NCBI RefSeq assembly: GCF_036365525.1
Contig: NC_090421.1
Span: forward strand, 2,993,327-3,057,326
Reading direction: 5' to 3'
From: Heterodontus francisci
Taxonomy: Eukaryota
Length of the DNA: 64,000 bases
Position 1 is the first letter of the stretch; each line of letters begins with the position of its first letter. Of this stretch, positions 4,240-50,628 are shown one piece after another. The notes beneath the pieces were generated by a model. That model was not told the origin of the DNA. It did not search any database and was given only the letters and a program-made list of their open reading frames with translations. The translations under genes and the position numbers were made by a program.

Positions 4240-4478
4240 CTTGTAAAAACATCCTAAGGCGCTTCACAGAAGCGATTATCAAACAGTATTTGACACTGAG
4301 CCGCATTAGAAGATATTAAGGTAAATGACCAAAAGCTTGGTCAAAGAGGTACATTTTAAGGTGTGTCTTAAAGGTGGAAAGAGGGGTAGAAATGCAGATA
4401 GGTTTAGGAAGGGAATTCCAGAGCTTCAGGCCTTGGCAGCTGAAGGCACGGCCGCCAATGAGGGAGCAATTAAAATCA
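4240..4478 (-). mobile_element. L2-type LINE 3' fragment
   Basis: Related to the reverse complement of the element at 10-110; truncated where the tandem array begins. Confidence 0.5.
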
Positions 4479-4784
4479 AACACTCCCAGGGCAGCTACAG
4501 CACGGGGTTAAATACAGAGTAAAGCTCCCTCTACACTGTCCCCATCAAACACTCCCCAGGACAGGTACAGTACAAGGGGTTAGATACAGAGTAAAGCTCC
4601 CTCTACACTGTCCCCATCAAACACTCCCAGGACAGGTACAGTACAGGGGGTTAGATACAGAGTAAAGCTCCCTCTACACTGTCCCATCAAACACTCCCAG
4701 GACAGGTACAGTACAGGGGGTTAGATACAGAGTAAAGCTCCCTCTACACTGTCCCATCAAACACTCCCAGGACAGGTACAGCAC
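4476..4784 (+). repeat. ~70-bp tandem repeat array, left part (~4.4 units); target of the Tx1 insertions
   Basis: Unit ggggttagatacagagtaaagctccctctacactgtcccatcaaacactcccaggacaggtacagcac. Period 70-72 bp (tta register at 4508, 4580, 4651, 4721). Confidence 0.95.
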
Positions 4785-5466
4785 TGGGATTGGCTGCTCT
4801 CTGATTTGGGAGCCTGAGTGTTGAGAGCCTCAACGAGGTGCAGCTGAGAGTGCTGGTGGCAGTTGGAGGTTGCAGAGGTGGAGAGAGGAGCTGCACTGAG
4901 CAAGGGAGAGCAGCTACCAACAAGCAGAGGAAAACTCCAACAACAGTCTCCATTAAAGAGAAGAAAGAGACATTTTTTGGAACAAGGCTTTGTCTGGAGG
5001 TGGGTGCTGAACACCAGTAATTTACTTTGGACTGTTGGGGGAGGAACAAGTGGCTGGAACAACAAGGGGTGGGGCTGCCAATTCAACAGGAGTCTGTGCT
5101 GCTGCAAAAGCACACAGGGAAGCTCCCTCCCCACCCCAATTGCCAAACCTGGGTCAGCTGAAGCTGCCCAGCTAAACAGACGGAAGGGGATAGATAGTGC
5201 CTGGGCAGCTTCAGCTGACCCAGGTGAAGACGACTCCCCCAACCAGAAGACCGGAAGACCAACTTCAAAGACTGTTTGTTTTAAGTGTACTGTGAGCACC
5301 ACCTCCAGAAAGCAAGTCATCCCTTCCAGCCTGCCTTTGCCTCTCCTCTCTTACCTCAGCCTCTCCACTAACCTGTTGTTTGTTTGTTTGTCTTTTCAAA
5401 TTTTTCTGTGAATCTGTTATTTAGTGTGCAAGTCCACAATTTGGGGTGGGTTTAGCTCTTGGACCC

Positions 5467-7509
5467 ATGGCAAGCCCTTCATCACCGGTGGCGGGGCCCT
5501 CTACTACCTACGCAGCTGCAGCTTCTGTGGCTGCCCACGTGGCCCCGTCACCCTTTAAATTATTGACATGCAGCCATGGGGTGAAGAGCTATCCCCACCC
5601 CAACATGTCTATTGAGGCCTGCGTTAAGGCAATGGCCGTGGTTGTCGGCCCCTCGGCCATTGTTGCGGCCTCAAAAATGTATGGGAAGGCTGTGTTCTTT
5701 TTGAAGACTGAGCGGGCGGTGTCCCTGGCCCTGAGTAAAGGGCTCACTGTGGGGGGGACCTTCCTGCCAGTGGACCCTCTGGGGGCCACTGCGCATCGGA
5801 TAATGTTGTCCAACGTCCCACCCTTCATTCCCAGTGAGCTCCTCCTCCCCCACCTACACCATCTGGGGGAGGTGAGGTCGGGGATCACCCCAGTCCGGCT
5901 TGGTCTTCGGGAGCACAGCCTCCAACATGTCTACTCCTTCCGCCGCCAGTTATTTATGCAGCTGGCGCGGGAGGAGGACACGGAGGGCCAATTTAATGTG
6001 GAGTTCCAGGGGACGGCCTACCGCGTCTTTTGGACCTCGGACGGGGCGCGGTGCCACGTCTGCAAGGGGGTGGGGCATGTTCGGAAGAACTGCCCCAACC
6101 TCCCGGCCGCCAGCTCCACCTCGGCGGCCCAGAGTGGTTCCACAGCACCTCCTCCCACTCCCCCCGCACATCCAACAGACACCGCTCAGTCGGTTCCGGA
6201 GGCTGTGGTTTTCACAGCCTCTGGCGGGGAGGGGAGCGTCCGTCCGAGCGGAAGGAAGACGCGGGGAAAAAAGAAACATCGTGAGGCGCGTCCCCTGGAC
6301 ACTTTGACTCAACCCGAGCCTGAGCTCAGCCCAAAGCCCATTCCCATGGAATCCACCTGTCCCAGGGCTGGGCTCAGGCCCAGGGTGACTAAAAAAGGAA
6401 AAAAGGGTGCGGAGGCGGAGGCCTCTGATGACATGGAGGTCTCTGAGTCTCCGCGCCCAAGTGCGAAAAAGAGGAGAAGGCACCCCTCCACAGAAATAAC
6501 ACAGGGCCCTGAGGTGCAGGGCCCATCTGTTGGAGGGGAGCTGCCTCCTGTTTCTGGTCCTCAGGTGCCCCCTACCGCCACCACCAAGGCTGCAAAGTCC
6601 GGGCAGGTGCTCCCTATTCCTCAGGATGGAGGGGAGGGGATGGCCCCGGTACGTGAGGCCCCTCCTGAAGGAGTAAGTGGGGCCCTGCTTGTGGTGGGGG
6701 AGCCTGGGGAAACCGCCCATTCCGCCACTGCTACTGGGTCGGGTGTCCTGAATGAAGGGGAGGGCGAGGCCCCAGAGGGTCGGGCCTCCCAGCCGGAGTC
6801 CACCACCAACCAGGAGACACCCGACCCAGTTATAACTGAGAATGCTGCCCCATCTGCTGGGCCTGTGGGTGCTGGCGGAGCGGGAGATGGCCTCCTCTCG
6901 CCGCCTCCAGTCTCGGCTCCGGCTGGTTTCCCGGAGTCCGGAACTTCTGTCTCCCCTGGACCAGTCATTGGCCTGGGGATGGAGGTGGAGGGGGGTCCTG
7001 AACCGCTGGTGCCTACAGGCTCCAGTTTCACAATAGAACCCAGAGAGGACTCCTCCGCCATCGATCCTGGGGGTGGGATCGTGACGGAGGCGGGACCAGC
7101 TGGCGCGGCCGGGACGTCCGCCCCACAGTGTGTGGTGGATGTGTCGGCCGCTGGCGGTGACGACCCGGAGGAGGATGGGGATTCGGTGCGGGGCACGGAG
7201 GATGATCTTGATTCCATCGCCAGTGAGGTGGTGGAGTCCCTCGTGCCTCCCACCGAATCTCCTCTCATCCCCACGGCGGAACTCCGGGATTTCCTCGCGG
7301 CTTGCAGAGGTTGCCGCAATAAAGTTCAGCTGGCCCTCGACCGTTGGTCGAATCTGGCGCTGATCATCCAGTCCGTCCGTGCCGCCCTTAAGATAGCGGG
7401 CAAGCGCGCGGACGTGAAACTGGTTGAGAGGCGCCGTTTTAATGTGTTCCTCAATGGGTTGCTGGGGGAGTGGAGGGCCAGGTGCACTTCCACTCCCTCC
7501 TCACAGTGA
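5467..7509 (+). CDS. Tx1 ORF1 protein (CCHC zinc knuckle; ZCCHC3/Tx1-ORF1-like), copy 1
   Basis: First ATG in cccATGg context; CHVCKGVGHVRKNC knuckle; long Pro/Gly/Glu-rich C-terminal half. Confidence 0.9.
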   Translation: MASPSSPVAGPSTTYAAAASVAAHVAPSPFKLLTCSHGVKSYPHPNMSIEACVKAMAVVVGPSAIVAASKMYGKAVFFLKTERAVSLALSKGLTVGGTFLPVDPLGATAHRIMLSNVPPFIPSELLLPHLHHLGEVRSGITPVRLGLREHSLQHVYSFRRQLFMQLAREEDTEGQFNVEFQGTAYRVFWTSDGARCHVCKGVGHVRKNCPNLPAASSTSAAQSGSTAPPPTPPAHPTDTAQSVPEAVVFTASGGEGSVRPSGRKTRGKKKHREARPLDTLTQPEPELSPKPIPMESTCPRAGLRPRVTKKGKKGAEAEASDDMEVSESPRPSAKKRRRHPSTEITQGPEVQGPSVGGELPPVSGPQVPPTATTKAAKSGQVLPIPQDGGEGMAPVREAPPEGVSGALLVVGEPGETAHSATATGSGVLNEGEGEAPEGRASQPESTTNQETPDPVITENAAPSAGPVGAGGAGDGLLSPPPVSAPAGFPESGTSVSPGPVIGLGMEVEGGPEPLVPTGSSFTIEPREDSSAIDPGGGIVTEAGPAGAAGTSAPQCVVDVSAAGGDDPEEDGDSVRGTEDDLDSIASEVVESLVPPTESPLIPTAELRDFLAACRGCRNKVQLALDRWSNLALIIQSVRAALKIAGKRADVKLVERRRFNVFLNGLLGEWRARCTSTPSSQ

Positions 7510-7541
7510 GCTGTTGGTGACGGGTTTTACGTACCTTTGAC

Positions 7542-10500
7542 ATGAAGATAACCATAGCCAGCCTCAACATCAACGGCAGCAGAGGGGCTCACCGCAGATT
7601 TCACAATCTCTCAGTCCTTAGGGAAGGGAGATACGCGGTGAGCTTTCTGCAGGAAACCCACACCGTTCCGGGAGACGAAGCCACCTGGCTCCTGGAGTGG
7701 CAGGGTGGGGTCTACATGAGTCACCTCACCCCTATTTCTAGTGGGGTGGCTATCTTGTTGGCCCCGACTTTTCAGCCGGAGATCTTGGGGGTCAAGGAGC
7801 TAGTGCCGGGCCGCTTGCTCCACCTCGCCGTTCGCCTGGGTAGCGTGCCGCTCCACTTTGTGAACGTGTACGCGCCCAGGCCCGGCGCTTTGCAAGCGCG
7901 CTTCTTTGAAGAAGTGTCCGCTCTCTTGAGCTCCATCGACAGCGGCGAGTGCATCATCCTCGGGGGGGATTTTAACTGCACCCTCGAGGTGGGGGATCGC
8001 TCCGGTCCCCAGCGCGGCCAAGCGTCGGTGGAGAAGTTGAGGGGACTGATCAGCTCCCTTAACTTGGTGGACGTCTGGCGGAATCTCCATCCCGACTCCA
8101 GCGCCTTCACGTGGAGGTCTGGAGGAGGGGGGTCGCGAATCGACCGCCTCTACATTTCGCAGGCGTACGTCTCCCGCGTTTCGGCGGCCTCCATGCGGCT
8201 GGTGCCGTGCTCGGACCACCGCCTGGTGTGGGCGGAGTTCACTCCGCTCCGCACGCGGGCGGGGTCCGCGTACTGGCACTTTAACAACCGGCTGCTGGAG
8301 GACGTGCGATTTCGGGACTCGTTCTGTCGATTCTGGACCGACTGGAGAAGGAAGCAGGGGGGCTTCCCCTCCTTGAGGCTATGGTGGGATGTGGGCAAGA
8401 CTCACATCCGCGTCTTCTGTCAGGAGTACGCGAAGGGGTCGACCAAGAGGCGGGAAGCCGAGGTCGGGCGCCTTGAGAGGGAGGTGCTCGACTTGGAATC
8501 CCGCCTCGGTCATGCCGTCGCGGACCCGGCCCTGTGGCAGGCGTACAAAGAGAAGAAGGGCGCGCTGAGGAACCTGCAGCTCATAGGGTCCCGAGGCGCG
8601 TACGTGAGGTCGCGGATCCAGATCCTGGAAGATTTGGACCGCGCCTCACCCTTCTTCTACTCGCTGGAAAAATGGCGGGGGGTCCGTAAGCAGCTTGTCG
8701 AGCTGCTGGCCGACGACGGATCCTCCATCACGGATCCGGAGGGAATGGGCCTCCTGGTCCGGACGTATTACAGTGCGTTGTTCTCTCCGGATCCGTCCAG
8801 CGAGGATGCGCGCAGAGTTTTGTGGGAGGACCTGCCGCAGGTCAGCCCGGAGGGCGCCGAAGGATTGGAGGCTCCGCTCACGTTGGCGGAGCTGACTGGC
8901 GCCCTCCACCAGCTCTCGAGGGGCAAATCCCCAGGGCTGGATGGGTTGACCGTGGAGTTCCTCAGGGCGTTCTGGGACGTCCTGGGGGACGATTACGCGC
9001 GGGTCCTGGGGGAAAGCCTGGCGACCGGGGAGATGCCCCTCTCGTGGCGCAGGGCGGTCATCGTCCTGCTGCCGAAGAGGGGCGATCTCCGCCTGCTTAA
9101 AAACTGGCGTCCGGTCTCCCTCCTCAGCACGGATTATAAGATCTTTGCCCGGGCTATGTCTACCCGCCTGGGCTCCGTGCTGGCCCACATGATCCACCCC
9201 GACCAGTCCTACACGGTCCCGGGCCGGTCCATCCAGGACAACATCCACCTGGTCCGGGACCTGATCCATCTTTCCCAGAGGACTGGTCAGTCGGTCGCCT
9301 TTCTCTCCCTCGATCAGGAGAAGGCGTTCGACAGGGTGGATCACGATTACCTTTTCGGGACTCTGCGCGCTTTCGGACTCGGGCCGCATTTCGTGGCCCG
9401 GGTCCGACTTTTATACGCCGCCGCAGAGTGTCTAGTCAAAGTTAACGGGTCCTTGACGGCGCCCCTTCGATTTGGGAGAGGAGTGCGTCAGGGATGCCCC
9501 ATGTCCGGCCAATTGTATACCATCTGCGTGGAGCCCTTCCTGTGCCTGCTTCGCAGGAGGTTGACGGGATTGGCTCTGCGCGAGCCGGCCATGCGGGTCG
9601 TCCTCTCGGCTTACGCCGACGACGTGCTCCTCGCAATCACAGATCCCGTTGACTCGCGGAGGATGCGCGACTGCCAGCAGACCTTTTCTGCCGCGTCCTC
9701 CGCGAGGATCAATTGGGAGAAATGTTCCGGACTCCTGGTTGGTCAGTGGCGGGTGGATTCCCTGCCGGAGGAGATGACACCTTTTGCGTGGAGCACCACG
9801 CACCTCCTCTATCTGGGAGTCCACCTTAGCCCCGCTGAGGAAGCCTGGCCGGCAAACTGGCAGGAGTTGGAGGCGAAAGTCACCGCTCGGCTGGGGCGCT
9901 GGACAGGACTGCTCCGAGTGCTTTCCTACAGGGGCCGAGCGTTGGTCATAAACCAACTGGTGGCCTCCATGCTGTGGTACCGGTTGGTCACTTTGGCCCC
10001 GCCCCCTGTATTTGCCACCAAGATCCAGAAGAAACTCGTCGATTTCTTCTGGGGCAAGAGGAAACACTGGGTCTCTGCCGCGGTCCTGAGTCTCCCGATC
10101 GAGGAGGGCGGTCAGTCGCTGGTGTGCGTCCGCACCCAGGCTGCGACTCTCCGCCTTCGGACCCTGCAGAGATACCTGTACGTCGAGCGTCCTCCCAGAT
10201 GGTGTGCGCTGGCGACGTATTTTTTCCGTCAGTGTCACTGCCTTCAAGACGACACGCAGCTCCCGGTGGAGTCCGTTAGCCGCGCCTCTCTGAGGGAGTT
10301 GCCTGTCTTTTACCGGGATCTTTTCCGAGTCTGGAACATGGTCGCCTCCAGTCAGGGCGCTCCCCCGCCGGCGGAGGAGAGCGCCTCGGCTGTCCGGGCG
10401 GCCGACTCCGGGGACGGTCCGGCGGGCGGAGGAGTAGCTGAAACCCCCGGGACGCCCCTCACTGTGGGTGGCGAGGGGGCTCGGGAGTGCGGAGCGATCC

Positions 10501-11279
10501 CGGCCGAGCTGACCCCCGCTGGGCCGGAACTGCTCATCGGACCCAGGCCCCGAAACCCTCCTCGGGAGCCGGTCCCGCACAACCCGAGCCGCCTCTCGGG
10601 AATGCCCTCCGTGCCATTCCAATCGGCGCGGAGGGGTTTCCTGTACGGGCTGCTCCTGCACACTTTCCACTTCCTCGCCCTCGTCAGCCGGCCGGACACG
10701 CCCTGGCGGTCCGCGTTGCCATCTGGCGGCGAGGGGAAACCCCGATGGAGGTCTCTCTACGCGGGAGTCTTCCCCCTTTACATCGGGGACCTGGGGTGGA
10801 GGGTGCTGCACAGAGCAGTCCCGTGCAATAGGCTTTTAAGTAGGTTCACGGACTCCCAGGCCACCTGTACTTTCTGCGGCCTGGACGAGTCCGTGTTCCA
10901 CATTTATACGGAGTGTGCGAGGTTGCAGCCCCTATTTGAGTATCTGAAGGGGCTGCTCCTCAAATTCTGGCTGCACTTCAGTCCCACGCTCCTGATCTTT
11001 GGGCACCCGGTGCGGAGGGGCTTGGGCCGGGAGGAGGATCTCCTCGTCGGTCTGCTCCTGGGCCTGGCCAAGGTGGCAATTCACAGGTCCAGGTTGCGGG
11101 CCGTCGGGGGTTCCGTCCTCCCTGATTGCCTGCCCCTCTTCCGCGGTTACGTTCGCGCCCGGGTGTCCCTGGAAAAGGAGCATGCGGTGTCCGCCGGTAC
11201 GCTTGAGGCCTTCCGCGACCGGTGGGCACCGCAGGGACTGGAGTGCATCGTCGACGCCGAGAATGGCATTTTAATTTGA
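7542..11279 (+). CDS. Tx1 ORF2 protein: APE endonuclease + reverse transcriptase + C-terminal zinc finger, copy 1
   Basis: SLNING, LQETH, GGDFN, SRIDR, SDH (APE); KSPGLDG, WRPVSLL, LDQEKAFD, RQGCPMS, YADD (RT); CTFC...H...C. 1245 aa, uninterrupted. Confidence 0.96.
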   Translation: MKITIASLNINGSRGAHRRFHNLSVLREGRYAVSFLQETHTVPGDEATWLLEWQGGVYMSHLTPISSGVAILLAPTFQPEILGVKELVPGRLLHLAVRLGSVPLHFVNVYAPRPGALQARFFEEVSALLSSIDSGECIILGGDFNCTLEVGDRSGPQRGQASVEKLRGLISSLNLVDVWRNLHPDSSAFTWRSGGGGSRIDRLYISQAYVSRVSAASMRLVPCSDHRLVWAEFTPLRTRAGSAYWHFNNRLLEDVRFRDSFCRFWTDWRRKQGGFPSLRLWWDVGKTHIRVFCQEYAKGSTKRREAEVGRLEREVLDLESRLGHAVADPALWQAYKEKKGALRNLQLIGSRGAYVRSRIQILEDLDRASPFFYSLEKWRGVRKQLVELLADDGSSITDPEGMGLLVRTYYSALFSPDPSSEDARRVLWEDLPQVSPEGAEGLEAPLTLAELTGALHQLSRGKSPGLDGLTVEFLRAFWDVLGDDYARVLGESLATGEMPLSWRRAVIVLLPKRGDLRLLKNWRPVSLLSTDYKIFARAMSTRLGSVLAHMIHPDQSYTVPGRSIQDNIHLVRDLIHLSQRTGQSVAFLSLDQEKAFDRVDHDYLFGTLRAFGLGPHFVARVRLLYAAAECLVKVNGSLTAPLRFGRGVRQGCPMSGQLYTICVEPFLCLLRRRLTGLALREPAMRVVLSAYADDVLLAITDPVDSRRMRDCQQTFSAASSARINWEKCSGLLVGQWRVDSLPEEMTPFAWSTTHLLYLGVHLSPAEEAWPANWQELEAKVTARLGRWTGLLRVLSYRGRALVINQLVASMLWYRLVTLAPPPVFATKIQKKLVDFFWGKRKHWVSAAVLSLPIEEGGQSLVCVRTQAATLRLRTLQRYLYVERPPRWCALATYFFRQCHCLQDDTQLPVESVSRASLRELPVFYRDLFRVWNMVASSQGAPPPAEESASAVRAADSGDGPAGGGVAETPGTPLTVGGEGARECGAIPAELTPAGPELLIGPRPRNPPREPVPHNPSRLSGMPSVPFQSARRGFLYGLLLHTFHFLALVSRPDTPWRSALPSGGEGKPRWRSLYAGVFPLYIGDLGWRVLHRAVPCNRLLSRFTDSQATCTFCGLDESVFHIYTECARLQPLFEYLKGLLLKFWLHFSPTLLIFGHPVRRGLGREEDLLVGLLLGLAKVAIHRSRLRAVGGSVLPDCLPLFRGYVRARVSLEKEHAVSAGTLEAFRDRWAPQGLECIVDAENGILI

Positions 11280-11415
11280 GTTTTTTGTTTATTTATCTGT
11301 TTTAATAAAGTTATTTTAAAACTGTAAATATGTACATAAAGGGGGCCTGAGGGATAAAGGCCCCCTCGATGTGAAAAATATAAAAGGGGCCTGGGGTATA
11401 AAGGTCACCTTGTGG

Positions 11416-11446
<31 letters not shown>

Positions 11447-12228
11447 GGGGTTAGATACAGAGTAAAGCTCCTTAAAAAAAAAAGAAAAAAAAAAAAAAAA
11501 AAAAAACGGGGTTAGAATAAGGAAAAAAAGAAAAAAAAAAAAACTGGGATTGGCTGCTCTCTGATTTGGGAGCCTGAGTGTTGAGAGCCTCAACGAGGTG
11601 CAGCTGAGAGTGCTGGTGGCAGTTGGAGGTTGCAGAGGTGGAGAGAGGAGCTGCACTGAGCAAGGGAGAGCAGCTACCAACAAGCAGAGGAAAACTCCAA
11701 CAACAGTCTCCATTAAAGAGAAGAAAGAGACATTTTTTGGAACAAGGCTTTGTCTGGAGGTGGGTGCTGAACACCAGTAATTTACTTTGGACTGTTGGGG
11801 GAGGAACAAGTGGCTGGAACAACAAGGGGTGGGGCTGCCAATTCAACAGGAATCTGTGCTGCTGCAAAAGCACACAGGGAAGCTCCCTCCCCACCCCAAT
11901 TGCCAAGCCTGGGTCAGCTGAAGCTGCCCAGCTAAACAGACGGAAGGGGATAGATAGTGCCTGGGCAGCTTCAGCTGACCCAGGTGAAGACGACTCCCCC
12001 AACCAGAAGACCGGAAGACCAACTTCAAAGACTGTTTATTTTAAGTGTACTGTGAGCACCACCTCCAGAAAGCAAGTCATCCCTTTCAGCCTGCCTTTGC
12101 CTCTCCTCTCTTACCTCAGCCTCTCCACTAACCTGTTGTTTGTTTGTTTGTCTTTTCAAATTTTTCTGTGAGTCGCTGTTATTTAGTGTGCAAGTCCACA
12201 ATTTGGGGTGGGTTTAGCTCTTGGACCC

Positions 12229-14265
12229 ATGGCAAGCCCTTCATCACCGGTGGCGGGGCCCTCTACTACCTACGCAGCTGCAGCTTCTGTGGCTGCCCAC
12301 GTGGCCCCGTCACCCTTTAAATTATTGACATGCAGCCATGGGGTGAAGAGCTATCCCCACCCCAACATGTCTATTGAGGCCTGCGTTAAGGCAATGGCCG
12401 TGGTTGTCGGCCCCTCGGCCATAGTTGCGGCCTCAAAGATGTATGGGAAGGCTGTGTTCTTTTTGAAGACCGAGCGGGCGGTGTCCCTGGCCCTGAGTAA
12501 AGGGCTCACTGTGGGGGGGACCTTCCTGCCAGTGGACCCTCTGGGGGCCACTGCGCATCGGATAATGTTGTCCAACGTCCCACCCTTCATTCCCAGTGAG
12601 CTCCTCCTCCCCCACCTGCACCATCTGGGGGAGGTGAGGTCGGGGATCACCCCAGTCCGGCTTGGTCTTCGGGAGCACAGCCTCCAACATGTCTACTCCT
12701 TCCGCCACCAGTTATTTATGCAGCTGGCGCGGGAGGAGGACACGGAGGGCCAATTTAATGTGGAGTTCCAGGGGACGGCCTACCGCGTCTTTTGGACCTC
12801 GGACGGGGCGCGGTGCCATGTCTGCAAGGGGGTGGGGCATGTTCGTAAGAACTGCCCCAACCTCCCGGCCGCCAGCTCCACCTCGGCGGCCCAGAGTGGT
12901 TCCACAGCACCTCCTCCCACTCCCCCCGCACATCCAACAGACACCGCTCAGTCGGTTCCGGAGGCTGTGGTTTTCACAGCCTCTGGCGGGGAGGGGAGCG
13001 TCCGTCCGAGCGGAAGGAAGACGCGGGGAAAAAAGAAACATCGTGAGGCGCGTCCCCTGGACACTTTGACTCAACCCGAGCCTGAGCTCAGCCCAAAGCC
13101 CATTCCCATGGAATCCACCTGTCCCAGGGCTGGGCTCAGGCCCAGGGTGACTAAAAAAGGAAAAAAGGGTGCGGAGGCCTCTGATGACATGGAGGTCTCT
13201 GAGTCTCCGCGCCCAAGTGCGAAAAAGAGGAGAAGGCACCCCTCCACAGAAATAACACAGGGCCCTGAGGTGCAGGGCCCATCTGTTGGAGGGGAGCTGC
13301 CTCCTGTTTCTGGTCCTCAGGTTCCCCCTACCGCCACCACCAAGGCTGCAAAGTCCGGGCAGGAGCACTCTATTCCTCAGGATGGAGGGGAGGGGATGGC
13401 CCCGGTACGTGAGGCCCCTCCTAAAGGAGTAAGTGGGGCCCTGCTTGTGGTGGGGGAGCCTGGGGAAACCGCCCATTCCGCCACTGCTACTGGGTCGGGT
13501 GCCCTGAATGAAGGGGAGGGCGAGGCCCCAGAGGGTCGGGCCTCCCAGCCGGAGTCCACCACCAACCAGGAGACACCCGACCCAGTTATAACTGAGAATG
13601 CTGCCCCATCTGCTGGGCCTGTGGGTGCTGGCGGAGTGGGAGATGGCCTCCTCTCGCCGCCTCCAGTCTCGGCTCCGGCTGGTTTCCCGGAGTCCGGAAC
13701 TTCTGTCTCCCCTGGACCACTCGTTGGCCTGGGGATGGAGGTGGAGGGGGGTCCTGAACCGCTGGTGCCTACAGGCTCCAGTTTCACAATAGAACCCAGA
13801 GAGGACTCCTCCGCCATCGATCCTGGGGGTGGGATCGTGACGGAGGCGGGACCAGCTGGCGCGGCTGGGACGTCCGCCCCACAGTGTGTGGTGGATGTGT
13901 CGGCCGCTGGCGGTGACGACCCGGAGGAGGATGGGGATTCGGTGCGGGGCACGGAGGATGATCTTGATTCCATCGCCAGTGAGGTGGTGGAGTCCCTCGT
14001 GCCTCCCACCGAATCTCCTCTCATCCCCACGGCGGAACTCCGGGATTTCCTCGTGGCTTGCAGAGGTTGCCGCAATAAAGTTCAGCTGGCCCTCGACCGT
14101 TGGTCGAATCTGGCACTGATCATCCAGTCCGTCCGTGCCGCCCTTAAGATAGCGGGCAAGCGCGCGGACGTGAAACTGGTTGAGAGGCGCCGTTTTAATG
14201 TGTTCCTCAATGGGTTGCTGGGGGAGTGGAGGGCCAGGTGCACTTCCACTCCCTCCTCACAGTGA
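12229..14265 (+). CDS. Tx1 ORF1 protein, copy 2
   Basis: As copy 1, with a 6-bp in-frame deletion (EAEAS to EAS) and several substitutions. Confidence 0.9.
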   Translation: MASPSSPVAGPSTTYAAAASVAAHVAPSPFKLLTCSHGVKSYPHPNMSIEACVKAMAVVVGPSAIVAASKMYGKAVFFLKTERAVSLALSKGLTVGGTFLPVDPLGATAHRIMLSNVPPFIPSELLLPHLHHLGEVRSGITPVRLGLREHSLQHVYSFRHQLFMQLAREEDTEGQFNVEFQGTAYRVFWTSDGARCHVCKGVGHVRKNCPNLPAASSTSAAQSGSTAPPPTPPAHPTDTAQSVPEAVVFTASGGEGSVRPSGRKTRGKKKHREARPLDTLTQPEPELSPKPIPMESTCPRAGLRPRVTKKGKKGAEASDDMEVSESPRPSAKKRRRHPSTEITQGPEVQGPSVGGELPPVSGPQVPPTATTKAAKSGQEHSIPQDGGEGMAPVREAPPKGVSGALLVVGEPGETAHSATATGSGALNEGEGEAPEGRASQPESTTNQETPDPVITENAAPSAGPVGAGGVGDGLLSPPPVSAPAGFPESGTSVSPGPLVGLGMEVEGGPEPLVPTGSSFTIEPREDSSAIDPGGGIVTEAGPAGAAGTSAPQCVVDVSAAGGDDPEEDGDSVRGTEDDLDSIASEVVESLVPPTESPLIPTAELRDFLVACRGCRNKVQLALDRWSNLALIIQSVRAALKIAGKRADVKLVERRRFNVFLNGLLGEWRARCTSTPSSQ

Positions 14266-14297
14266 GGTGTTGGTGACGGGTTTTAAGTACCTTTGAC

Positions 14298-17200
14298 ATG
14301 AAGATAACCATAGCCAGCCTCAACATCAACGGCAGCAGAGGGGCTCACCGCAGATTTCACAATCTCTCAGTCCTTAGGGAAGGGAGATACGCGGTGAGCT
14401 TTCTGCAGGAAACCCACACCGTTCCGGGAGACGAAGCCACCTGGCTCCTGGAGTGGCAGGGTGGGGTCTACATGAGTCACCTCACCCCTATTTCTAGTGG
14501 GGTGGCTATCTTGTTGGCCCCGACTTTTCAGCCGGAGATCTTGGGGGTCAAGGAGCTAGTGCCGGGCCGCTTGCTCCACCTCGCCGTTCGCCTGGGTAGC
14601 GTGCCGCTCCACTTTGTGAACGTGTACGCGCCCAGGCCCGGCGCGTTGCAAGCGCGCTTCTTTGAAGAAGTGTCCGCTCTCTTGAGCTCCATCGATAGCG
14701 GCGAGTGCATCATCCTCGGGGGGGATCTTAACTGCACCCTCGAGGTGGGGGATCGCTCCGGTCCCCAGCGCGGCCAAGCGTCGGTGGAGAAGTTGAGGGG
14801 ACTGATCAGCTCCCTTAACTTGGTGGACGTCTGGCGGAATCTCCATCCCGACTCCAGCGCCTTCACGTGGAGGTCTGGAGGAGGGGGGTCGCGAATCGAC
14901 CGCCTCTACATTTCGCAGGCGTACGTCTCCCGCGTTTCGGCGGCCTCCATGCGGCTGGTGCCGTGCTCGGACCACCGCCTGGTGTGGGCGGAGTTCACTC
15001 CGCTCCGCACGCGGGCGGGGTCCGCGTACTGGCACTTTAACAACCGGCTGCTGGAGGACGTGCGATTTCGGGACTCGTTCTGTCGATTCTGGGCCGACTG
15101 GAGAAGGAAGCAGGGGGGCTTCCCCTCCTTGAGGCTATGGTGGGATGTGGGCAAGACTCACATCCGCGTCTTCTGTCAGGAGTACGCGAAGGGGTCGACC
15201 AAGAGGCGGGAAGCCGAGGTCGGGCGCCTTGAGAGGGAGGTGCTCGACTTGGAATCCCGCCTCGGTCATGCCGTCGCGGACCCGGCCCTGTGGCAGGCGT
15301 ACAAAGAGAAGAAGGGCGCGCTGAGGAACCTGCAGCTCATAGGGTCCCGAGGCGCGTACGTGAGGTCGCGGATCCAGATCCTGGAAGATTTGGACCGCGC
15401 CTCACCCTTCTTCTACTCGCTGGAAAAATGGCGGGGGGTCCGTAAGCAGCTCATCGAGCTGCTGGCCGACGACGGATCCTCCATCACGGATCCAGAGGGA
15501 ATGGGCCTCCTGGTCCGGACTTATTACAGTGCGTTGTTCTCTCCGGATCCGTCCAGCGAGGATGCGCGCAGAGTTTTGTGGGAGGACCTGCCGCAGGTCA
15601 GCCCGGAGGGCGCCGAAGGATTGGAGGCTCCGCTCACGTTGGCGGAGCTGACTGGCGCCCTCCACCAGCTCTCGAGGGGCAAATCCCCAGGGCTGGATGG
15701 GTTGACCGTGGAGTTCCTCAGGGCGTTCTGGGACGTCCTGGGGGACGATTACGCGCGGGTCCTGGGGGAAAGCCTGGCGACCGGGGAGATGCCCCTCTCG
15801 TGGCGCAGGGCGGTCATCGTCCTGCTGCCGAAGAGGGGCGATCTCCGCCTGCTTAAAAACTGGCGTCCGGTCTCCCTCCTCAGCACGGATTATAAGATCT
15901 TTGCCCGGGCTATGTCTACCCGCCTGGGCTCCGTGCTGGCCCACATGATCCACCCCGACCAGTCCTACACGGTCCCGGGCTGGTCCATCCAGGACAACAT
16001 CCACCTGGTCCGGGACCTGATCCATCTTTCCCAGAGGACTGGTCAGTCGGTCGCCTTTCTCTCCCTCGATCAGGAGAAGGCGTTCGACAGGGTGGATCAC
16101 GATTACCTTTTCGGGACTCTGCGCGCTTTCGGACTCGGGCCGCATTTCGTGGCCTGGGTCCGACTTTTATACGCCGCCGCAGAGTGTCCAGTCAAAGTTA
16201 ACGGGTCCTTGACGGCGCCCCTTCGATTTGGGAGAGGAGTGCGTCAGGGGTGTCCCATGTCCGGCCAATTGTATACCATCTGCGTGGAGCCCTTCCTGTG
16301 CCTGCTTCGCAGGAGGTTGACGGGATTGGCTCTGCGCGAGCCGGCCATGCGGGTCGTCCTCTCGGCTTACGCCGACGACGTGCTCCTCGCAATCACAGAT
16401 CCCGTTGACTTGCGGAGGATGCGCGACTGCCAGCAGACCTTTTCTGCCGCGTCCTCCGCGAGGATCAATTGGGAGAAATGTTCCGGACTCCTGGTTGGTC
16501 AGTGGCGGGTGGACTCCCTGCCGGAGGAGATGACACCTTTTGCGTGGAGCACCACGCACCTCCTCTATCTGGGAGTCCAGCTTAGCCCCGCTGAGGAAGC
16601 CTGGCAGGCAAACTGGCAGGAGTTGGAGGCGAAAGTCACCGCTCGGCTGGGGCGCTGGACAGGACTGCTCCGAGTGCTTTCCTACAGGGGCCGAGCGTTG
16701 GTCATAAACCAACTGGTGGCCTCCATGCTGTGGTACCGGTTGGTCACTTTGGCCCCGCCCCCTGTATTTGCCACCAAGATCCAGAAGAAACTCGTCGATT
16801 TCTTCTGGGGCAAGAGGAAACACTGGGTCTCTGCCGCGGTCCTGAGTCTCCCGATTGAGGAGGGAGGTCAGTCGCTGGTGTGCGTCCGCACCCAGGCTGC
16901 GACTCTCCGCCTTCGGACCCTGCAGAGATACCTGTACGTCGAGCGTCCTCCCAGATGGTGTGCGCTGGCGACGTATTTTTTCCGCCAGTGTCACTGCCTT
17001 CAAGACGACACGCAGCTCCCGGTTGAGTCCGTTAGCCGCGCCTCTCTGAGGGAGTTGCCTGTCTTTTACCGGGATCTATTCCGAGTCTGGAACATGGTCG
17101 CCTCCAGTCAGGGTGCTCCCCCGCCGGCGGAGGAGAGCGCCTCGGCTGTCCGGGTGGCTGACTCCGGGGACGGTCCGGCGGGCGGAGGAGTAGCCGAAAC

Positions 17201-18035
17201 CCCCGGGACGCCCCTCACTGCGGGTGGCGAGGGGGCTTGGGAGTGCGGAGCGATCCCGACAGAGCTGACCCCCGCTCGGCCGGAACTGCTCATCGGACCC
17301 AGGCCCCGAAACCCTCCTCGGGAGCCGGTCCCGCACAACCCGAGCCGCCTCTCGGAAATGCCCTCCGTGCCATTCCAATCGGCGCAGAGGGCTTTCCTGT
17401 ACGGGCTGCTCCTGCACACTCTCCACTTCCTCGCCCTCGTCAGCCGGCCGGACACGCCCTGGCGGTCCGTGTTGCCATCTGGTGGCGAGGGGAAACCCCG
17501 ATGGAGGTCTCTCTACGCGGGAGTCTTCCCCCTTTACATCGGGGACCTGGGGTGGAGGGTGCTGCACAGAGCAGTCCCGTGCAATAGACTTTTAAGTAGG
17601 TTCACGGACTCCCAGGCCGCCTGTACTTTCTGCGGCCTGGACGAGTCCGTGTTCCATGTTTATACGGAGTGTGCGAGGTTGCAGCCCTTCTTTGAGTATC
17701 TGAAGGGGCTGCTCCTCAAATTCTTGCTGCACTTCAGTCCCACGCTCCTGATCTTTGGGCACCCGGTGCGGAGGGGCGTGGGCCGGGAGGAGGATCTCCT
17801 CGTCGGTCTGCTCCTGGGCCAGGCCAAGGTGGCAATTCACAGGTCCAGGTTGCGGGCCGTCGGGGGTTCCGTCCTGCCCGATTGCCTGCCCCTCTTCCGC
17901 GGTTACGTTCGCGCCCGGGTGTCCCTGGAGAAGGAGCATGCGGTGTCTGCCGGTACGCTTGAGGCCTTCTGCGACCGGTGGGCACCGCAGGGACCGGAGT
18001 GCATCATTGACGCCGAAAATGGCATTTTAATTTGA
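14298..18035 (+). CDS. Tx1 ORF2 protein, copy 2
   Basis: 1245 aa, uninterrupted; 28 aa differences from copy 1 by manual comparison. Confidence 0.96.
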   Translation: MKITIASLNINGSRGAHRRFHNLSVLREGRYAVSFLQETHTVPGDEATWLLEWQGGVYMSHLTPISSGVAILLAPTFQPEILGVKELVPGRLLHLAVRLGSVPLHFVNVYAPRPGALQARFFEEVSALLSSIDSGECIILGGDLNCTLEVGDRSGPQRGQASVEKLRGLISSLNLVDVWRNLHPDSSAFTWRSGGGGSRIDRLYISQAYVSRVSAASMRLVPCSDHRLVWAEFTPLRTRAGSAYWHFNNRLLEDVRFRDSFCRFWADWRRKQGGFPSLRLWWDVGKTHIRVFCQEYAKGSTKRREAEVGRLEREVLDLESRLGHAVADPALWQAYKEKKGALRNLQLIGSRGAYVRSRIQILEDLDRASPFFYSLEKWRGVRKQLIELLADDGSSITDPEGMGLLVRTYYSALFSPDPSSEDARRVLWEDLPQVSPEGAEGLEAPLTLAELTGALHQLSRGKSPGLDGLTVEFLRAFWDVLGDDYARVLGESLATGEMPLSWRRAVIVLLPKRGDLRLLKNWRPVSLLSTDYKIFARAMSTRLGSVLAHMIHPDQSYTVPGWSIQDNIHLVRDLIHLSQRTGQSVAFLSLDQEKAFDRVDHDYLFGTLRAFGLGPHFVAWVRLLYAAAECPVKVNGSLTAPLRFGRGVRQGCPMSGQLYTICVEPFLCLLRRRLTGLALREPAMRVVLSAYADDVLLAITDPVDLRRMRDCQQTFSAASSARINWEKCSGLLVGQWRVDSLPEEMTPFAWSTTHLLYLGVQLSPAEEAWQANWQELEAKVTARLGRWTGLLRVLSYRGRALVINQLVASMLWYRLVTLAPPPVFATKIQKKLVDFFWGKRKHWVSAAVLSLPIEEGGQSLVCVRTQAATLRLRTLQRYLYVERPPRWCALATYFFRQCHCLQDDTQLPVESVSRASLRELPVFYRDLFRVWNMVASSQGAPPPAEESASAVRVADSGDGPAGGGVAETPGTPLTAGGEGAWECGAIPTELTPARPELLIGPRPRNPPREPVPHNPSRLSEMPSVPFQSAQRAFLYGLLLHTLHFLALVSRPDTPWRSVLPSGGEGKPRWRSLYAGVFPLYIGDLGWRVLHRAVPCNRLLSRFTDSQAACTFCGLDESVFHVYTECARLQPFFEYLKGLLLKFLLHFSPTLLIFGHPVRRGVGREEDLLVGLLLGQAKVAIHRSRLRAVGGSVLPDCLPLFRGYVRARVSLEKEHAVSAGTLEAFCDRWAPQGPECIIDAENGILI

Positions 18036-18182
18036 GTTTTTGTTGATTTATCTGGTCTTAAATAAAGTTATTTTTTTTTAAACCTGTAAATATGTATATA
18101 AAGGGGGCCTGAGGAATAAAGGCCCCCTCAACATGAAAATATAAAAGGGGCCTGGGGTATAAAGGTCACCTTAAAACAAAAA

Positions 18183-18395
18183 CGGGGGTTAGATAAAAAA
18201 AAAACGGGGGTTAAAAAAAAAGAAAAAGAAAAAAAAAAACGGGGGTTAGATACAGAGTAAAGCTCCCTCTACACTGCCCCATCAAACATTCCCAGGACAG
18301 GTAAAGCACGGGGGTTAGATAAAAAAAATTGGGGGTTAGATACAGAGTAAAAAAAAACGGGTTAGATACAGAGTAAAGCTCCCTCTACACTGTCC
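18183..18395 (+). repeat. ~70-bp tandem repeat array, right part, interrupted by A-tracts
   Basis: One full unit (18240-18308) plus partial units, each restarting at (c)ggg(gg)tt after an A-tract. Confidence 0.92.
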
Positions 18396-18751
18396 AAACA
18401 ATGTGCCTTGAGCCGAACCTCATAAGGAAGCCCCCAAATGCACGTATACAATGTTTTTCTATGAAACAAACCAATCATCCTTCTGACCTGTGGGAATGAG
18501 ATTGTAAATTTAATACAAATTTATGACCACATTTCCATGGTCAGTTCACGGGCAGCATAGATGGGGATTGGGATGCAGGCAACCTGCTTGTTCTCTTGTT
18601 CATAGTTAGTATATGGAACAGAGAAAGACAGGTCAGAAAATTTAGAATAATAACCTTGAGCAAAAAAATTGATTCTAAAAACAATGATTAAGATGGTGTG
18701 GCTGTTAGTTCCTGCAGTTAATGTATGTTTCTCACCTGCCCTTCTTCTTAG

Positions 18752-18814
18752 GCGGATGACCATCCTTCTGCCAGCGTGGCTGAACTAAATCGTCAGATTG
18801 AGAAACTAAGTAAG
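18752..18814 (+). CDS. BAZ2A: BAZ2A coding exon
   Basis: cttcttag|...|gtgagt. Encodes ADDHPSASVAELNRQIEKLSK (BAZ2A ELERQIEKLSK). Confidence 0.9.
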
Positions 18815-18819
18815 GTGAG

Positions 18820-19726: not shown

Positions 19727-20364
19727 GTAAGACTTACAATGCCAACTGTTCTGTCGTAAATAGTCAAATAAATGCAATCCCATAGAGCCTACTGTTTCTA
19801 TTTTAGGGAATTTCTTACCTTGATGCTGTTAGATGCTTTTCTGTAATTTTCCCAGCAAAATCCATAATCTAATCAGCCCTACTTTTCCCCCAATTTTCTC
19901 TTCTTTCCTCCTCCCTCCCACTGAACCCCTTGACCAAAGGCACAGACTCCTGCTGAGGTACAGTTCCACATGTCCCAGCAGGGCTTCAGTACCTTAACCC
20001 ACTGCCCATTTGCCATATGTGTGTCTCGACACAGAGTGCTGGCAGAATATCAACTGTTGGAGGGATCAGAGTGGGCCTGAACCTGACCTCACCCAATCTC
20101 CAGACACACACATTTTCCAAGAACTCTGCCCAAAGAAATGTGCTGTGGCATGGGTCACTGCTTTTAGGAGAAGAGGGAAGATTATTGAGAGGGACAGAAA
20201 GAAACGGCAGCTTGGGAGGAGGGGAAATTTGGGGTTTTGAAACTCTGCACTTATTGGGCATATTCAATTGAGTAGAAATTATTCACCTTCCAGCATTCTG
20301 ATCTGTACAATGTATTTTTAATGAGGAAATGTCATAATTCATGCTTGATATCCCTCTCCACCAG

Positions 20365-20999
20365 GTACTGAAGAGTTGGAAGCCGAAAGGAATCAACACA
20401 ACCTCATTGAGATTGCCCCAGTTAAAGTGGAGTCGAGGGATGTACCAGATGAGAAACCAAACACTCTGGGTAGGCCAGCAGATAACCGGCGGAGAAAGTG
20501 TGAGACAGAACTGGTCAACCCAGAGAACCCAAAGCGGCACCGAGCTGCTGCAAACGCCAAGCATTACAGTGACACTGTAGAAGACACACATTCCACCAAT
20601 CAGACTCTTCATAATGTTAACCAATCAGGTGTTTTTTTAGCCTGGCTGAGCATCCTACAGAACTCGGTGTCAAACCTCTCTCTTCCTACACCTCAGTGCA
20701 GCACCAGCAAAGACAGCCCGAGTGCCATCTCCCCAGAGGTGCTACTGGCTAGCAATCGGAAGCTATTTGATCTCAGTGTCCCAAACTCGGAGCAAAAGGT
20801 CAAAGAATGTGCCGAGAAACACGGACAGTGGTTCAGCCTTCTACCCAGAATGCCCTGTGATTCCTCTTCTATTACCCACCTTCCATTTTCTTCACAACAA
20901 ACATTGCTGAATCAATCCCAGAGACTGGATTCAGATCCAAGTCAACTGAACCACAGTGCAGTAAAGCCGCCTGCCTCTGCTGCTTTTACAAAGTCACAG
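20365..20999 (+). CDS. BAZ2A: BAZ2A large coding exon
   Basis: ccaccag|...cag|gtatgt. Open for 635 nt; contains NQSGVFLAWLS and GQWFSLLPRMPCD (BAZ2-family motifs). Phase 1 in, phase 0 out. Confidence 0.88.
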
Positions 21000-22430
21000 G
21001 TATGTGATTTGTATTTTTGGGTGCAGGAGACGAGAGGGAAGAGGAAGGATGTGAATCTAAATTGGGAATTTTAAATTATGAACGTCATCATGTTGACTAC
21101 TTCAGGGGGGACCTTTGATCTTTGAGCCTTGGATTAAAAGCCCCACAGGCTGATAGCTACCAGAATGCTAGATGAAGTGAATTTGAGCTGTCTCAATCCA
21201 GTTCCTAGTGGGCTTTACAGAATTACCCAGCAGAAATATCACAGTGACCAATATCTCACTCAGAAAAGCCAGAATGATGGCTGGTGCAGGGAATGAAAAA
21301 TACCCATGGCTCGGCTGTGGGTGTTTCTTTGGGCGTGGTATATTGTTGGGACAGAGTGCAGGGAACGTTTCTGTGTACATGACTGACATACAAATCTGAC
21401 CTGGACATGTTGGTGTTCACTGGCACTGGGGACAAAAAGTGGGAACATTTTCATTGCCCAGACACCTTTTACCTGATTTAGAGCAAAAAAAAACGAGCAG
21501 TGTAGGAGGGGAGAATGCTCAGCCATGCTTCCAGCTCCTGGCTGCTATCTAGCAACCCCTGCTGGAAAGAGGGTGTGATGTTGGGTGATCATAAAATCAT
21601 AGAATGATGCAGCCATTCAGCCCATCGTGCCTGTGCTGGCTTTTTAGGTGGTGAGCGGACTTGGTGGCCCTGAGGCTGTCAATCCTCGAGTTGTCTGCCG
21701 ACACCTCACTGTGCAAAGTCACAAATGAAGCATTGCCACCTGAGCAAGGTACAGGAGGGAACCTACCAACCACGGAACAAGAACCCAACAAAGAGTTAAT
21801 GCCTCCAGCAGAGGAAGGAAGGGGAGAAGGTTGACTGGAAAAGGTGCAGGGTGGTGGGGGAAGTAAAAGACTGATTTGGAAGGCATATTAAGTAGTTTGT
21901 ACACATTAGAAGCAGGGAGTGCTCTCGTGAAAATGGGGTTGGCATATTGTTGGTGTACCATAGAGGGAGCTGTACTCTACATCAAAGCATGATACACCTG
22001 ACCTGGGAGTGCTTCGTGCTGACTCTGGGACAAAGGAATTGGAATATGTTTCATTCCCTGGCAGTGACATCCTTCCCTTGATTGATGCTTTGCTTTTTTA
22101 TCTGACAGTGTTTTCTCCTGATCTCCTGAAAGCTGACTCCCTGTGGGAAAGTGGTTCCAAAAGCAGTGGCTGCTTTCCAATATTTCACCCAAGTGTCCAT
22201 TCCTCAGGCGTCAGCCTGGGCAGTGTGTGTCAGCAAGCTATTACATACACCGTGGACAGCATCACAGTTGTGACTGATCCTGTCCTTCCCCCATTGGCCA
22301 CTCACAGCCACACCCACTTTTTACAAAGGCTATGGGCTACACTGGAAAGATCCCATTTACTGCCCAATGAATGCCACCTTCTTGAGCCACGGCAGACCTT
22401 TCCAGCAGGGGTCACTGCATAGCAATCAGG

Positions 22431-25413
22431 AATTAGAATTAGAATTAGAACATTACAGCGCAGTACAGGCCCTTCGGCCCTCGATGTTGCGCCGACCTGT
22501 GAAACCATCTGACCTACACTATTCCATTTTCATCCATATGTCTATCCAATGACCACTTAAATGCCCTTAAAGTTGGCGAGTCTACTACTGCTGCAGGTAG
22601 GGCGTTCCACGCCCCTACTACTCTCTGAGTAAAGAAACTACCTCTAACATCTGTCCTATATCTATCACCCCTCAACTTAAAGCTATGTCCCCTCGTGTTT
22701 GCCATCACCATCCGAGGAAAAAGACTCTCACTATCCACCCTATCTAACCCTCTGATTATCTTATATGTCTCTATTAAGTCACCTCTCCTCCTCCTTCTCT
22801 CCAACGAAAACAACCTCAAGTCCCTCAGCCTTTCCTCGTAAGACCTTCCCTCCATACCAGGCAACATCCTAGTAAATCTCCTCTGCACCCTTTCCATAGC
22901 TTCCACATCCTTCCTATAATGCGGTGACCAGAACTGCACGCAATACTCCAGGTGCGGTCTCACCAGAGTTTTGTAGAGCTGCAGCATGACCTCGTGGCTC
23001 CGAAACTCGATCCCCCTACTAATAAAAGCTAACACACCATATGCCTTCTTAACAGCCCTATTAACCTGGGTAGCAACCTTCAGGGATTTATGCACCTGGA
23101 CACCAAGATCTCTCTGTTCATCTACACTACCAAGAATCTTCCCATTAGCCCAGTACTCTGCATTCCTGTTACTCCTTCCAAAGTGAATCACCTCGCACTT
23201 ATCCGCATTAAACTCCATTTGCCATCTCTCAGCCCAGCTCTGCAGCCTATCTATGTCTCTCTGTACCCTACAACATCCTTCGGCACTATCCACAACTCCA
23301 CCGACCTTAGTGTCATCCGCAAATTTACTAACCCACCCTTCTACACCCTCTTCCAGGTCATTTATAAAAATGACAAACAGCAGTGGCCCCAAAACAGATC
23401 CTTGCGGTACACCACTAGTAACTAAACTCCAGGATGAACATTTGCCATCAACCACCACCCTCTGTCTTCTTTCAGCTAGCCAATTTCTGATCCAAAGCTC
23501 TAAATCACCTTCAACCCCATACTTCCGTATTTTCTGCAATAGCCTACCATGGGGAACCTTATCAAACGCCTTACTGAAATCCATGTACACCACATCCACT
23601 GCTTTACCCTCATCCACCTGTTTGGTCACCTTCTCGAAAAACTCAATAAGGTTTGTGAGTCACGACCTACCCGTCACAAAACCGTGCTGACTATCGCTAA
23701 TGAACTTATTCTTTTCAAGATGATTATAAATCCTGTCTCATAACCTTTTCCAACATTTTACCCACAACCGAAGTAAGGCTCACAGGTCTATAATTACCAG
23801 GGCTGTCTCTACTCCCCTTCTTGAACAAGGGGACAACATTTGCTATCCTCCAGTCTTCCGGCACTATTCCTGTCGACAATGACGACATAAAGATCAAGGA
23901 CAAAGGCTCTGCAATCTCCTCCCGAGCTTCCCAGAGAATCCTAGGATAAATCCCATCTGGCCCAGGGGACTTATCTATTTTCACACTTTCCAAAATTGAT
24001 AACACCTCCTCCTTGTGAACCTCAATCCCATCTAGCCTAGTAGTCTGAATCTCAGTATTCTCCTCGACAACATTTTCTTTCTCTACTGTAAATACTGACG
24101 CAAAATATTCATTTAACACTTCCCCTACCTCCTCTGATTCCACACACAACTTCCCACTACTATCCTTGATTGGCCCTAATCTAACTCTAGTCATTCTTTT
24201 ATTCCTGATATACCTATAGAAAGCCTTAGGGTTTTCCCTGATCCTATCCGCCAATGACTTCTCGTGTCCTCTCCTTGCTCGTCTTAGCTCTCCCTTTAGA
24301 TCCTTCCTGGCTAGCTTGTAACTCTCAAGCGCCCTAACTGAGCCTTCACGTCTCATCCTAACATAAGCCTTCTTCTTCCTCTTGACAAGCGCTTCAACTT
24401 CTTTAGTAAACCATGGCTCCCTCGCTCGACAACTTCCTCCCTGCCTCACAGGTACATACTTATCAAGGACACGCAGTAGCTGCTCCTTGAATAAGCTCCA
24501 CATTTCGATTGTTCCCATCCCCTGCAGTTTCCTTCCCCATCCTACGCATCCTAAATCTTGCCTAATCGCATCATAATTTCCTTTCCCCCAGCTATAATTT
24601 TTGCCCTGCGGTATATACCTGTCCCTGCCCATCGCTAAGGTAAACCTAACCGAATTGTGATCACTATCACCAAAGTGCTCACCTACATCTAAATCTAACA
24701 CCTGGCCGGGTTCATTACCCAGTACCAAATCCAATGTGGCATCGCCCCTGGTTGGCCTGTCTACATACTGTGTCAGAAAACCCTCCTGCACACACTGGAC
24801 AAAAACTGACCCATCTAAAGTACTCGAACTATAGTATTTCCAGTCGATATTTGGAAAGTTAAAGTCCCCCATAACAACTACCCTGTTACTCTCGCCCCTG
24901 TCGTGAATCATCTTCGCTATCCTTTCCTCTACATCTCTGGAACTATTTGGAGGTCTATAAAAGACTCCCAACAGGGTGACCTCACCTCTCCTGTTTCTAA
25001 CCTCGGCCCATACTACCTCCGTAGACGTGTCCTCAAACGTCCTTTCTGTCGCTGTAATACTCTCCTTGATTAACAATGCCACACCCCCCCCTCTTTTACC
25101 ATCTTCTCTGTTCTTACTGAAACATCTAAATCCCGGAACCTGCAACATCCATTCCTGCCCCTGCAGGAATGAACTGGGTAATGAACCCGGCCAGGTGTTA
25201 GATTTAGATGTAGGTGAGCACTTTGGTGATAGTGATCACAATTCGGTTAGGTTTACCTTAGCGATGGGCAGTGACAGGTATATACCGCAGGGCAAAAATT
25301 ATAGCTGGGGGAAAGGAAATTATGATGCGATTAGGTAAGATTTAGGATGCGTAGGATGGGGAAGGAAACTGCAGGGGATGGGAACAATCGAAATGTGGAG
25401 CTTATTCAAGGAG
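22431..25413 (-). mobile_element. Young 5'-truncated CR1 LINE with an inverted internal duplication at its 5' end
   Basis: (ttctaa)n tail at ~22431-22450. ORF2 pieces 23724-25148 (APE: GDFN, SDH) and 22514-23629 (RT: PQGSVLGP, FADD), split by a frameshift. 25173-25413 is the reverse complement of 24483-24723. Confidence 0.92.
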
Positions 25414-41232: not shown

Positions 41233-41852
41233 GTGTCGGGCTGTGGGGAACTCCGTGTCGGGCTGTGGGGAACTCCGTGTCGGGCTGTGGGGAACTCCGT
41301 GTCGGGCTGTGGGGAGCTCCGTGCCGGGCTGTGGGGAGCTCCGTGCCGGGCTGTGGGGAGCTCCGTGCCGGGCTGTGGGGAGCTCCGTGCCGGGCTGTGG
41401 GGAGCTCCGTGTCGGGCTGTGGGGAGCTCCGTGTCGGGCTGTGGGGAGCTCCGTGTCGGGCGGTGGTGAACTCTGATGGGCTGTGGGGAACTCTGTGATG
41501 GGCTGTGGGGAGCTCCGTGATGGGCTGTGGGGAGCTCCGTGATGGGCTGTGGGGAGCTCCGTGATGGGCTGTGGGGAACTCCGTGTCGGGCTGTGGGGAG
41601 CTCCGTGTCGGGCTGTGGGGAACTCTGATGGACTGTGGGGAGCTCCGTGTCGGGCGGTGGTGAACTCCGTGTCGGGCGGTGGTGAACTCCGTGTCGGGCG
41701 GTGGTGAACTCCGTGTCGGGCTGTGGGGAGCTCCGTGTCGGGCTGTGGGGAGCTCCGTGTCGGGCGGTGGTGAACTCTGATGGGCTGTGGGGAACTCTGT
41801 GATGGGCTGTGGGGAACTCTGTGATGGGCTGTGGGGAACTCCGTGATGGGCT
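41233..41852 (+). repeat. G-rich 22-bp minisatellite (~28 units)
   Basis: Unit gggctgtggggagctccgtgtc with variants; period 22. Confidence 0.95.
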
Positions 41853-50546: not shown

Positions 50547-50628
50547 GACAGTTATTACTGCACCTGCAACATTAAATAGTTAGATGCAACTAGTTCACAA
50601 TATATATATGTCTAGGTTATAAAAGCTG

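Follow-up and report, generated by a model that had tools for sequence, protein, structure and literature searches.

The closest described systems, as they appear in the accessible parts of the sources cited, are of four kinds. Elements of the Tx1 clade (Tx1L in Tx1D, Keno, Kibi, Koshi and Tx1-Mar) show target preference and occur as tandem insertions at their targets (PMC4494074). L1 is known for 3' transduction, in which mostly short pieces are found with two tails and in connection with poly(A) signals (PMC13009371), and the events are classed as solo, partnered or orphan (PMC7058536); an account of L1 transduction and its orphans regards mobilisation of microsatellites by L1 as conceivable, and as unreported in 2013 (PMC3812793). 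Finally, 3' transduction with read-through into the downstream target has been described in assays of R7Ag and R1Bm (PMC7265360), and co-transcription with target sequence is held to help the target-specific integration of R2 (PMC4494074).

The window (the whole 64,000-nt stretch of DNA analysed here) belongs to a 6.0-Gb genome (contig label C51) and contains a 70-bp tandem array followed by two full-length non-LTR retrotransposons. The 70-bp unit we take to be a cartilaginous-fish repeat. The features of the locus are as follows.

4475..4783, + strand: some 4.5 tandem copies of the 70-bp unit, forming the left part of the array that was invaded (TRF period 70, 95% matches, and sequence)
4784..11415, + strand: element 1, full-length and Tx1-like; ORF1 frame 5425-7509, ORF2 frame 7521-11279
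11416..11543, + strand: tail block of element 1, consisting of A30, a 26-nt fragment (11446-11471), a mixed A-tract, a fragment of about 10 nt (11507-11516) with 6 extra bases, and a mixed A-tract
11544..18172, + strand: element 2, full-length and Tx1-like; ORF1 frame 12187-14265, ORF2 frame 14277-18035
18173..18182, + strand: element 2's own first A-tail (from the sequence; the position matches the tails of its closest relatives)
18183..18204, + strand: 12-nt target fragment (18183-18194) and A10
18205..18239, + strand: 8-nt target fragment (18205-18212) and a 27-nt mixed A-tract
18240..18328, + strand: 81-nt piece (18240-18320; one 69-nt unit plus 12 nt) and A8
18330..18357, + strand: 19-nt target fragment (18330-18348) with a G-run of 5, and A9
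18358..18395, + strand: final right flank with a G-run of 3, then non-repeat DNA (from the sequence; presumed original flank)

The two elements are 98.4% identical, and each has an open ORF1 frame and an ORF2 frame of 1,252 codons. Pfam matched PF03372 and PF00078 (N-terminal APE endonuclease and reverse transcriptase) in ORF2 of both copies and returned zero matches for ORF1; ORF2 also matches L1-type endonuclease structures, and Atlas clusters have the same build. The translations show two features of the Tx1 clade, namely a CCHC knuckle in ORF1 and, at the C terminus of ORF2, a cysteine motif, and the family shares with this clade sequence-specific insertion and a 3' A-tail. Judging by this anatomy and the naming in the first-pass annotation, the family would be Tx1-like. 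An Rfam search of the array and 5' UTR gave four weak matches only, far below gathering scores. The head of element 1 abuts the end of a unit directly, with target fragment absent between them, and that of element 2 comes directly after an A-tract.

In the 3' UTRs (11336-11415 and 18102-18172) a GC-rich hairpin unit recurs whose loop carries a poly(A)-signal hexamer, and A-tails begin after different hairpin units in different element copies. Subfamilies with a common 3' part and differing 5' UTR, all keeping the target-like head, were seen at L069, L072, L073, L078 and L080. Elsewhere in the window, stretches at 18741-18815 and from 20365 onward look like exons with splice-like ends, suggesting that the array and both elements are intronic; a Pfam search on 20349-21074 matched nothing. 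Reverse transcriptase and endonuclease frames of another LINE lie at 22514-25235 (- strand) and 50616-51674 (+ strand), and 28.5 tandem copies of a 22-bp repeat at 41233-41852.

The first-pass annotation had read five A-tract junctions in this locus as element-free poly(A) scars. All five junctions are present where they had been placed, the target restarting at 18183, 18205, 18240, 18330/18331 and 18358. The term element-free does not fit them: they lie in one unbroken 185-nt block straight after the 3' end of element 2, and the one at 18183 is no scar, as the preceding tract (18173-18182) is that element's own tail.

Genome-wide, A8 followed by the target start has 3,363 matches, against 2 for the reversed control. 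An anchor in the middle of the unit with a free 30-nt gap has 2,811 matches, against 7 for an anchor covering the other stretch, which occurs in 22,260 exact copies; copy number is known for this second anchor only, and the two gaps span most, not all, unit phases. Among the 100 matches listed for the mid-unit anchor, which were read individually, every restart is at the G-run site. A-tracts thus peak sharply at one position within the unit, as expected for a fixed first nick, and the claims of a single register and of an origin of the scars in retrotransposition are both upheld.

Scars were sampled from the first 100 matches listed, corresponding to 89 loci, in 81 of which a total of 113 scars were parsed. 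An element 3' end lies at most 400 nt upstream of 25 of them and another A-tract one unit upstream of 45; 83 have no element end in view upstream. Together with the 204 scars that, by a strict pattern, have an intact unit upstream, these last indicate that element-free scars do exist. In all fetched loci, the A-run immediately ahead of the target is most often 9-10 nt long (118 of 268), and A-tails are often made of several 9-10-nt runs parted by 1-2 bases, so that each run may represent one round. Listed junctions concentrate near the ends of large contigs. At L004 (~1450-2150), a scar unit of 35-37 nt plus A9-10 has been amplified to a tandem array of its own, in which two units alternate.

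The origin of the fragments is best seen where the element has landed outside its target. For 5'-truncated copies, a script looked for a duplication after each downstream A-tract. The off-target class comprises 25 rows: 10 with an 11-14-nt duplication (at most 1 mismatch), 4 with 6-7 nt, 1 spurious (L193) and 10 with none, some of these last being copies with a wrongly called 5' end or copies on target (L088, L191, L194). All ten copies with an 11-14-nt duplication (L089, L094, L096, L098, L099, L101, L102, L105, L106 and L195) enclose satellite and a second A-tail inside the duplication, at distances of 65 to 576 nt from element end to duplication; nine of the ten come from loci fetched for holding a junction. 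Enclosed satellite and A-tail are also apparent by eye at L097 and at L107, which stacks three fragments, and at L087 a 10-nt target fragment sits inside a 7-nt duplication. Since these off-target sites had no target, the fragments must have arrived with the RNA. The 29 copies most closely related to element 2 were picked by their 3' end alone; two of the four off-target truncated copies in this set carry target, and 12 of the 29 have at least two junctions within 400 nt of the 3' end. L169 and L176 have in common a 75-nt tail fragment, alike in its private variants and in where it ends, and continue differently after it, as daughters of one donor would. Fragment ends peak at unit indices 27 and 33, which fits a variant poly(A)-signal hexamer (an amplified array adds to the count at index 33), and at indices 6 and 13, where no poly(A)-signal-like hexamer is found upstream at the usual distance of 10-30 nt. 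In four sequencing runs presumed to be RNA, all in the form of contigs, the pieces listed contained neither a tail-target bridge nor an RNA end, which bears neither way on read-through.

Two further patterns were noted in these tails. Short pieces of element head followed by an A-tail occur at L089, L152, L169 and L174, in the manner of read-through that reaches a following element in tandem. At L014 and L017, 7 kb apart on C1, one element has on either side the same 37-nt fragment, its 5 extra bases included, by duplication or by local transduction. Pure slippage, tried as an origin of the A-tracts, is ruled out by their register and the bracketed cases.

On-target truncated copies have duplications of 0 or 5-16 nt, most commonly 12-14 (two calls in L086 are spurious), so that the range for all truncated copies is 0-16 nt, mainly 11-14. 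At full-length copies the picture is different: none of 46 heads is preceded by a target fragment, 34 abutting a unit end and 12 coming after an A-tract (3 further head matches were dropped as not being heads). The second nick thus looks to be near 13 nt rather than spread across 8-26 nt, and the variable second nick that had been invoked for left fragments of 8-26 nt is not supported by the measured duplications. The head starts with a target-like C and G-run, the second base being usually T (26 of 49 matches). As T is also present in both window copies, the target-like head travels with the element.

The target site is used again after insertion, as had been proposed: truncated copies lie behind an earlier A-tract with 13-14-nt duplications at L074 and L185. 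Element heads are re-targeted as well. L178 shows a 13-nt duplication of a head, and at L168 a histone-like retrocopy precedes a head. The latter (L168 merged with L212, ~900-1223) consists of an H2B-like coding end, a short 3' UTR and A13, directly before the element head, and is apparently a cellular mRNA retroposed to the target register. Such renewed cutting, at tail-target junctions as well as at heads, explains the growth of arrays head to tail. The earlier account of such growth is right about re-use through tail-target junctions and had missed the heads as target-like insertion sites.

Left fragments, previously taken for target duplications, were compared with the right flanks of the same scars. 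Set aside beforehand were 21 of the 113 scars, in which an element head or other sequence lies on the right, together with duplicates within a locus, body-less fragments and tail-cut flanks; 73 scars were left. Fragments longer than 14 nt show no excess of identity (6 of 39 identical to the right flank, null 5.2), and none of 28 body variants is common to both sides; for these the duplication claim fails. Fragments of at most 14 nt are identical in 18 of 34 cases (null 11.5, P 0.008, or P 0.057 when the first base is left out), an excess restricted to short scars without an upstream A-tract (10 of 17, null 4.8, P 0.005), in which neighbour identity is nearly as high (6, 4 and 5 of 13). Scars with an upstream A-tract, which is the window's class, show none (8 of 17, null 6.6; 4 of 23, null 3.3). 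In 32 of 73 scars the left side has the longer G-run, and in 4 the shorter one; G-runs are somewhat shorter in units that follow an A-tract than in internal ones, which weakens this argument and leaves that from variants unaffected. One locus, L039, makes a convincing case for duplication, 11 nt being repeated on either side of a tiny insert.

Altogether, we regard it as quite probable that a Tx1-like element, by serial 3' transduction of its own target, accounts for most fragments, with a minority of poly(A)-only insertions. The first reading went further and made each scar a separate in-situ insertion of poly(A) alone, the left fragment being a target-site duplication whose length depends on a variable second nick. 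The fixed register agrees with it, as do L039, the identity excess in short isolated scars and the spread of on-target truncated copies from 0 to ~16 nt. An A follows the fragment end in 42 of 52 cases, which joining by microhomology predicts; tail addition, however, predicts this as well. Such insertions cannot yield fragments inside duplications of unrelated DNA, nor do they fit the lack of signal above 14 nt or of common variants, and three fragments of the window, at 19, 26 and 81 nt, are longer than the duplications measured. As a general explanation this reading is already contradicted, and we consider it unlikely; poly(A)-only insertions probably exist as a minority of scars. Much less likely still is a single origin of the A-tracts followed by their multiplication through turnover of the tandem repeat (by slippage or unequal exchange), most junctions being copies, not events. 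Amplified scar arrays at L004, L045, L146 and L157 and the frequent A-tract one unit upstream are in keeping with turnover, which leaves unexplained, however, the unique duplications around blocks of fragment and tail, the many fragment lengths (the four behind element 2 are all unequal), the distinct fragment ends at unlinked loci and the strand bias, with a single T-tract before a unit in the loci examined, these having been chosen for A-tracts. Turnover remains a secondary process.

A similarly slim chance attaches to independent polyadenylated satellite transcripts, retroposed in trans to the target site with no read-through from an element. The H2B-like mRNA end at the target register in L168 shows that trans-mobilisation occurs; at L066 the left fragment has a variant common to the upstream units and absent from the right flank, and the majority of sampled scars have no element end in view. 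Against this, all bracketed off-target cases open with element 3' sequence, and internal fragments begin exactly at the A-tract junction, as the flank of a donor element would. No bracketed insertion of satellite only was identified, short of a systematic search.

Serial transduction can be applied to the window by analogy. The layout of 18240..18328 is that of the transduced piece within the duplication at L094 (one unit plus 11 nt and A10), and 18330..18357 is of the same class as the last transduced piece within the duplication at L195 (18-nt fragment and A9). The last left fragment and the right flank, having G-runs of 5 and 3, are not identical copies. A search for a donor or sibling of 18240-18357 found none above 95% over part of the query (40 of 1,584 candidates scored), so the history of this tail is reconstructed from the other loci. 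Most simply, the block 18173-18357 would be the inherited tail of element 2 and, probably, 18358..18395 the right half of the original target. In the simplest history the array was once joined to 18358, where two elements then inserted, each with its tail block. The 12-nt length of two window fragments fits the 13-nt duplication size and counts against a reading by transduction only; these could be duplications made here or in a donor.

In the mechanism that we propose, the element would nick the 70-bp unit at one site, right before the C that opens the G-run, in line with the observed register. Termination would be weak, so that the element RNA often passes its own A-tail into the downstream target, with a new tail from 1 nt to several units on; the content of the off-target duplications is directly visible, and the RNA step is what it points to. 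Every daughter may add a block of fragment and A-tail, so that tails would grow serially, and 5' truncation within the satellite would give orphan transductions that join an upstream unit by homology and resemble element-free scars. The second nick would usually fall ~13 nt away, leaving a duplication in truncated copies and none in full-length ones, probably because the target-like head anneals to the overhang. Recutting of tail-target junctions and heads would build head-to-tail arrays. A minority of scars, of at most 14 nt, may be true duplications with poly(A)-only insertion. On missing its target, the element leaves target fragments or multi-unit arrays at new places. Turnover would later multiply individual scars, as at L004, to form arrays.

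New arrays in unrelated DNA are found at L099, L105 and L106, with up to ~570 nt of array (L105). In 17 further arrays, namely those among the first 100 anchor matches that were not fetched for junctions (a sample that leans against transduction), an A-tract of at least 7 within 40 nt is absent in 12; eight of the 17 have element words beside or inside them and a ninth has a head by eye. Transduction as the source of every array is unsupported, given these 12 without a nearby A-tract. Most likely, the satellite is older and independent in origin, and transduction is a second route. More tentatively, and with somewhat less than even confidence, we envisage a self-feeding loop in which read-through RNA seeds off-target arrays and lengthens existing ones, which are then re-invaded, giving a sizeable share of the spread and growth of the satellite; stacked tails would then also be a readable record of successive rounds of retrotransposition. 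Target-specific retrotransposons are usually viewed as limited by the supply of targets; here, the element demonstrably leaves its target in unrelated DNA, a direct way for a retrotransposon to spread a tandem repeat along with its own landing sites. The thousands of junctions in one genome make second-nick spacing, the part of the target-like head in 5' joining and lineage tracing by stacked tails open to test.

In the literature searched, which lay outside Repbase, Dfam and most subscription papers, we found no description of the 70-bp unit, of the family or of any site-specific element that plants arrays of its own target; the family may have a catalogue entry already. Each single step is known from L1, R1Bm and R7Ag, and a Tx1-like family moving its own target and seeding arrays was not found in the papers searched. 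R2 has target-like sequence at the 5' end of its RNA and full-length 5' junctions without duplication. Both traits recur here; R2 differs in its class of endonuclease, and the head described here is merely target-like and is itself re-targeted. The likeness to the Tx1 clade lies in the APE endonuclease and reverse transcriptase, the single preferred repeated target and the tandem insertions there (PMC4494074), the difference in the target itself, a 70-bp tandem unit. The accessible text on that clade (PMC4494074) has tandem copies sandwiching a duplication and mentions neither serial target transduction nor the seeding of arrays. R1Bm and R7Ag, as far as their source is accessible, are likewise site-specific APE elements whose RNA reaches into the downstream target; they are rDNA-targeting and were studied in assays, whereas the present evidence comes from many genomic loci and includes a new A-tail after the target piece. 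With L1, as described in the accessible accounts, our element shares two A-tails, a downstream flank within the duplication, mostly short pieces and orphans through 5' truncation. The flank carried by L1, however, is unrelated sequence. Here it is always the element's own target, so that an off-target event can make a new target.
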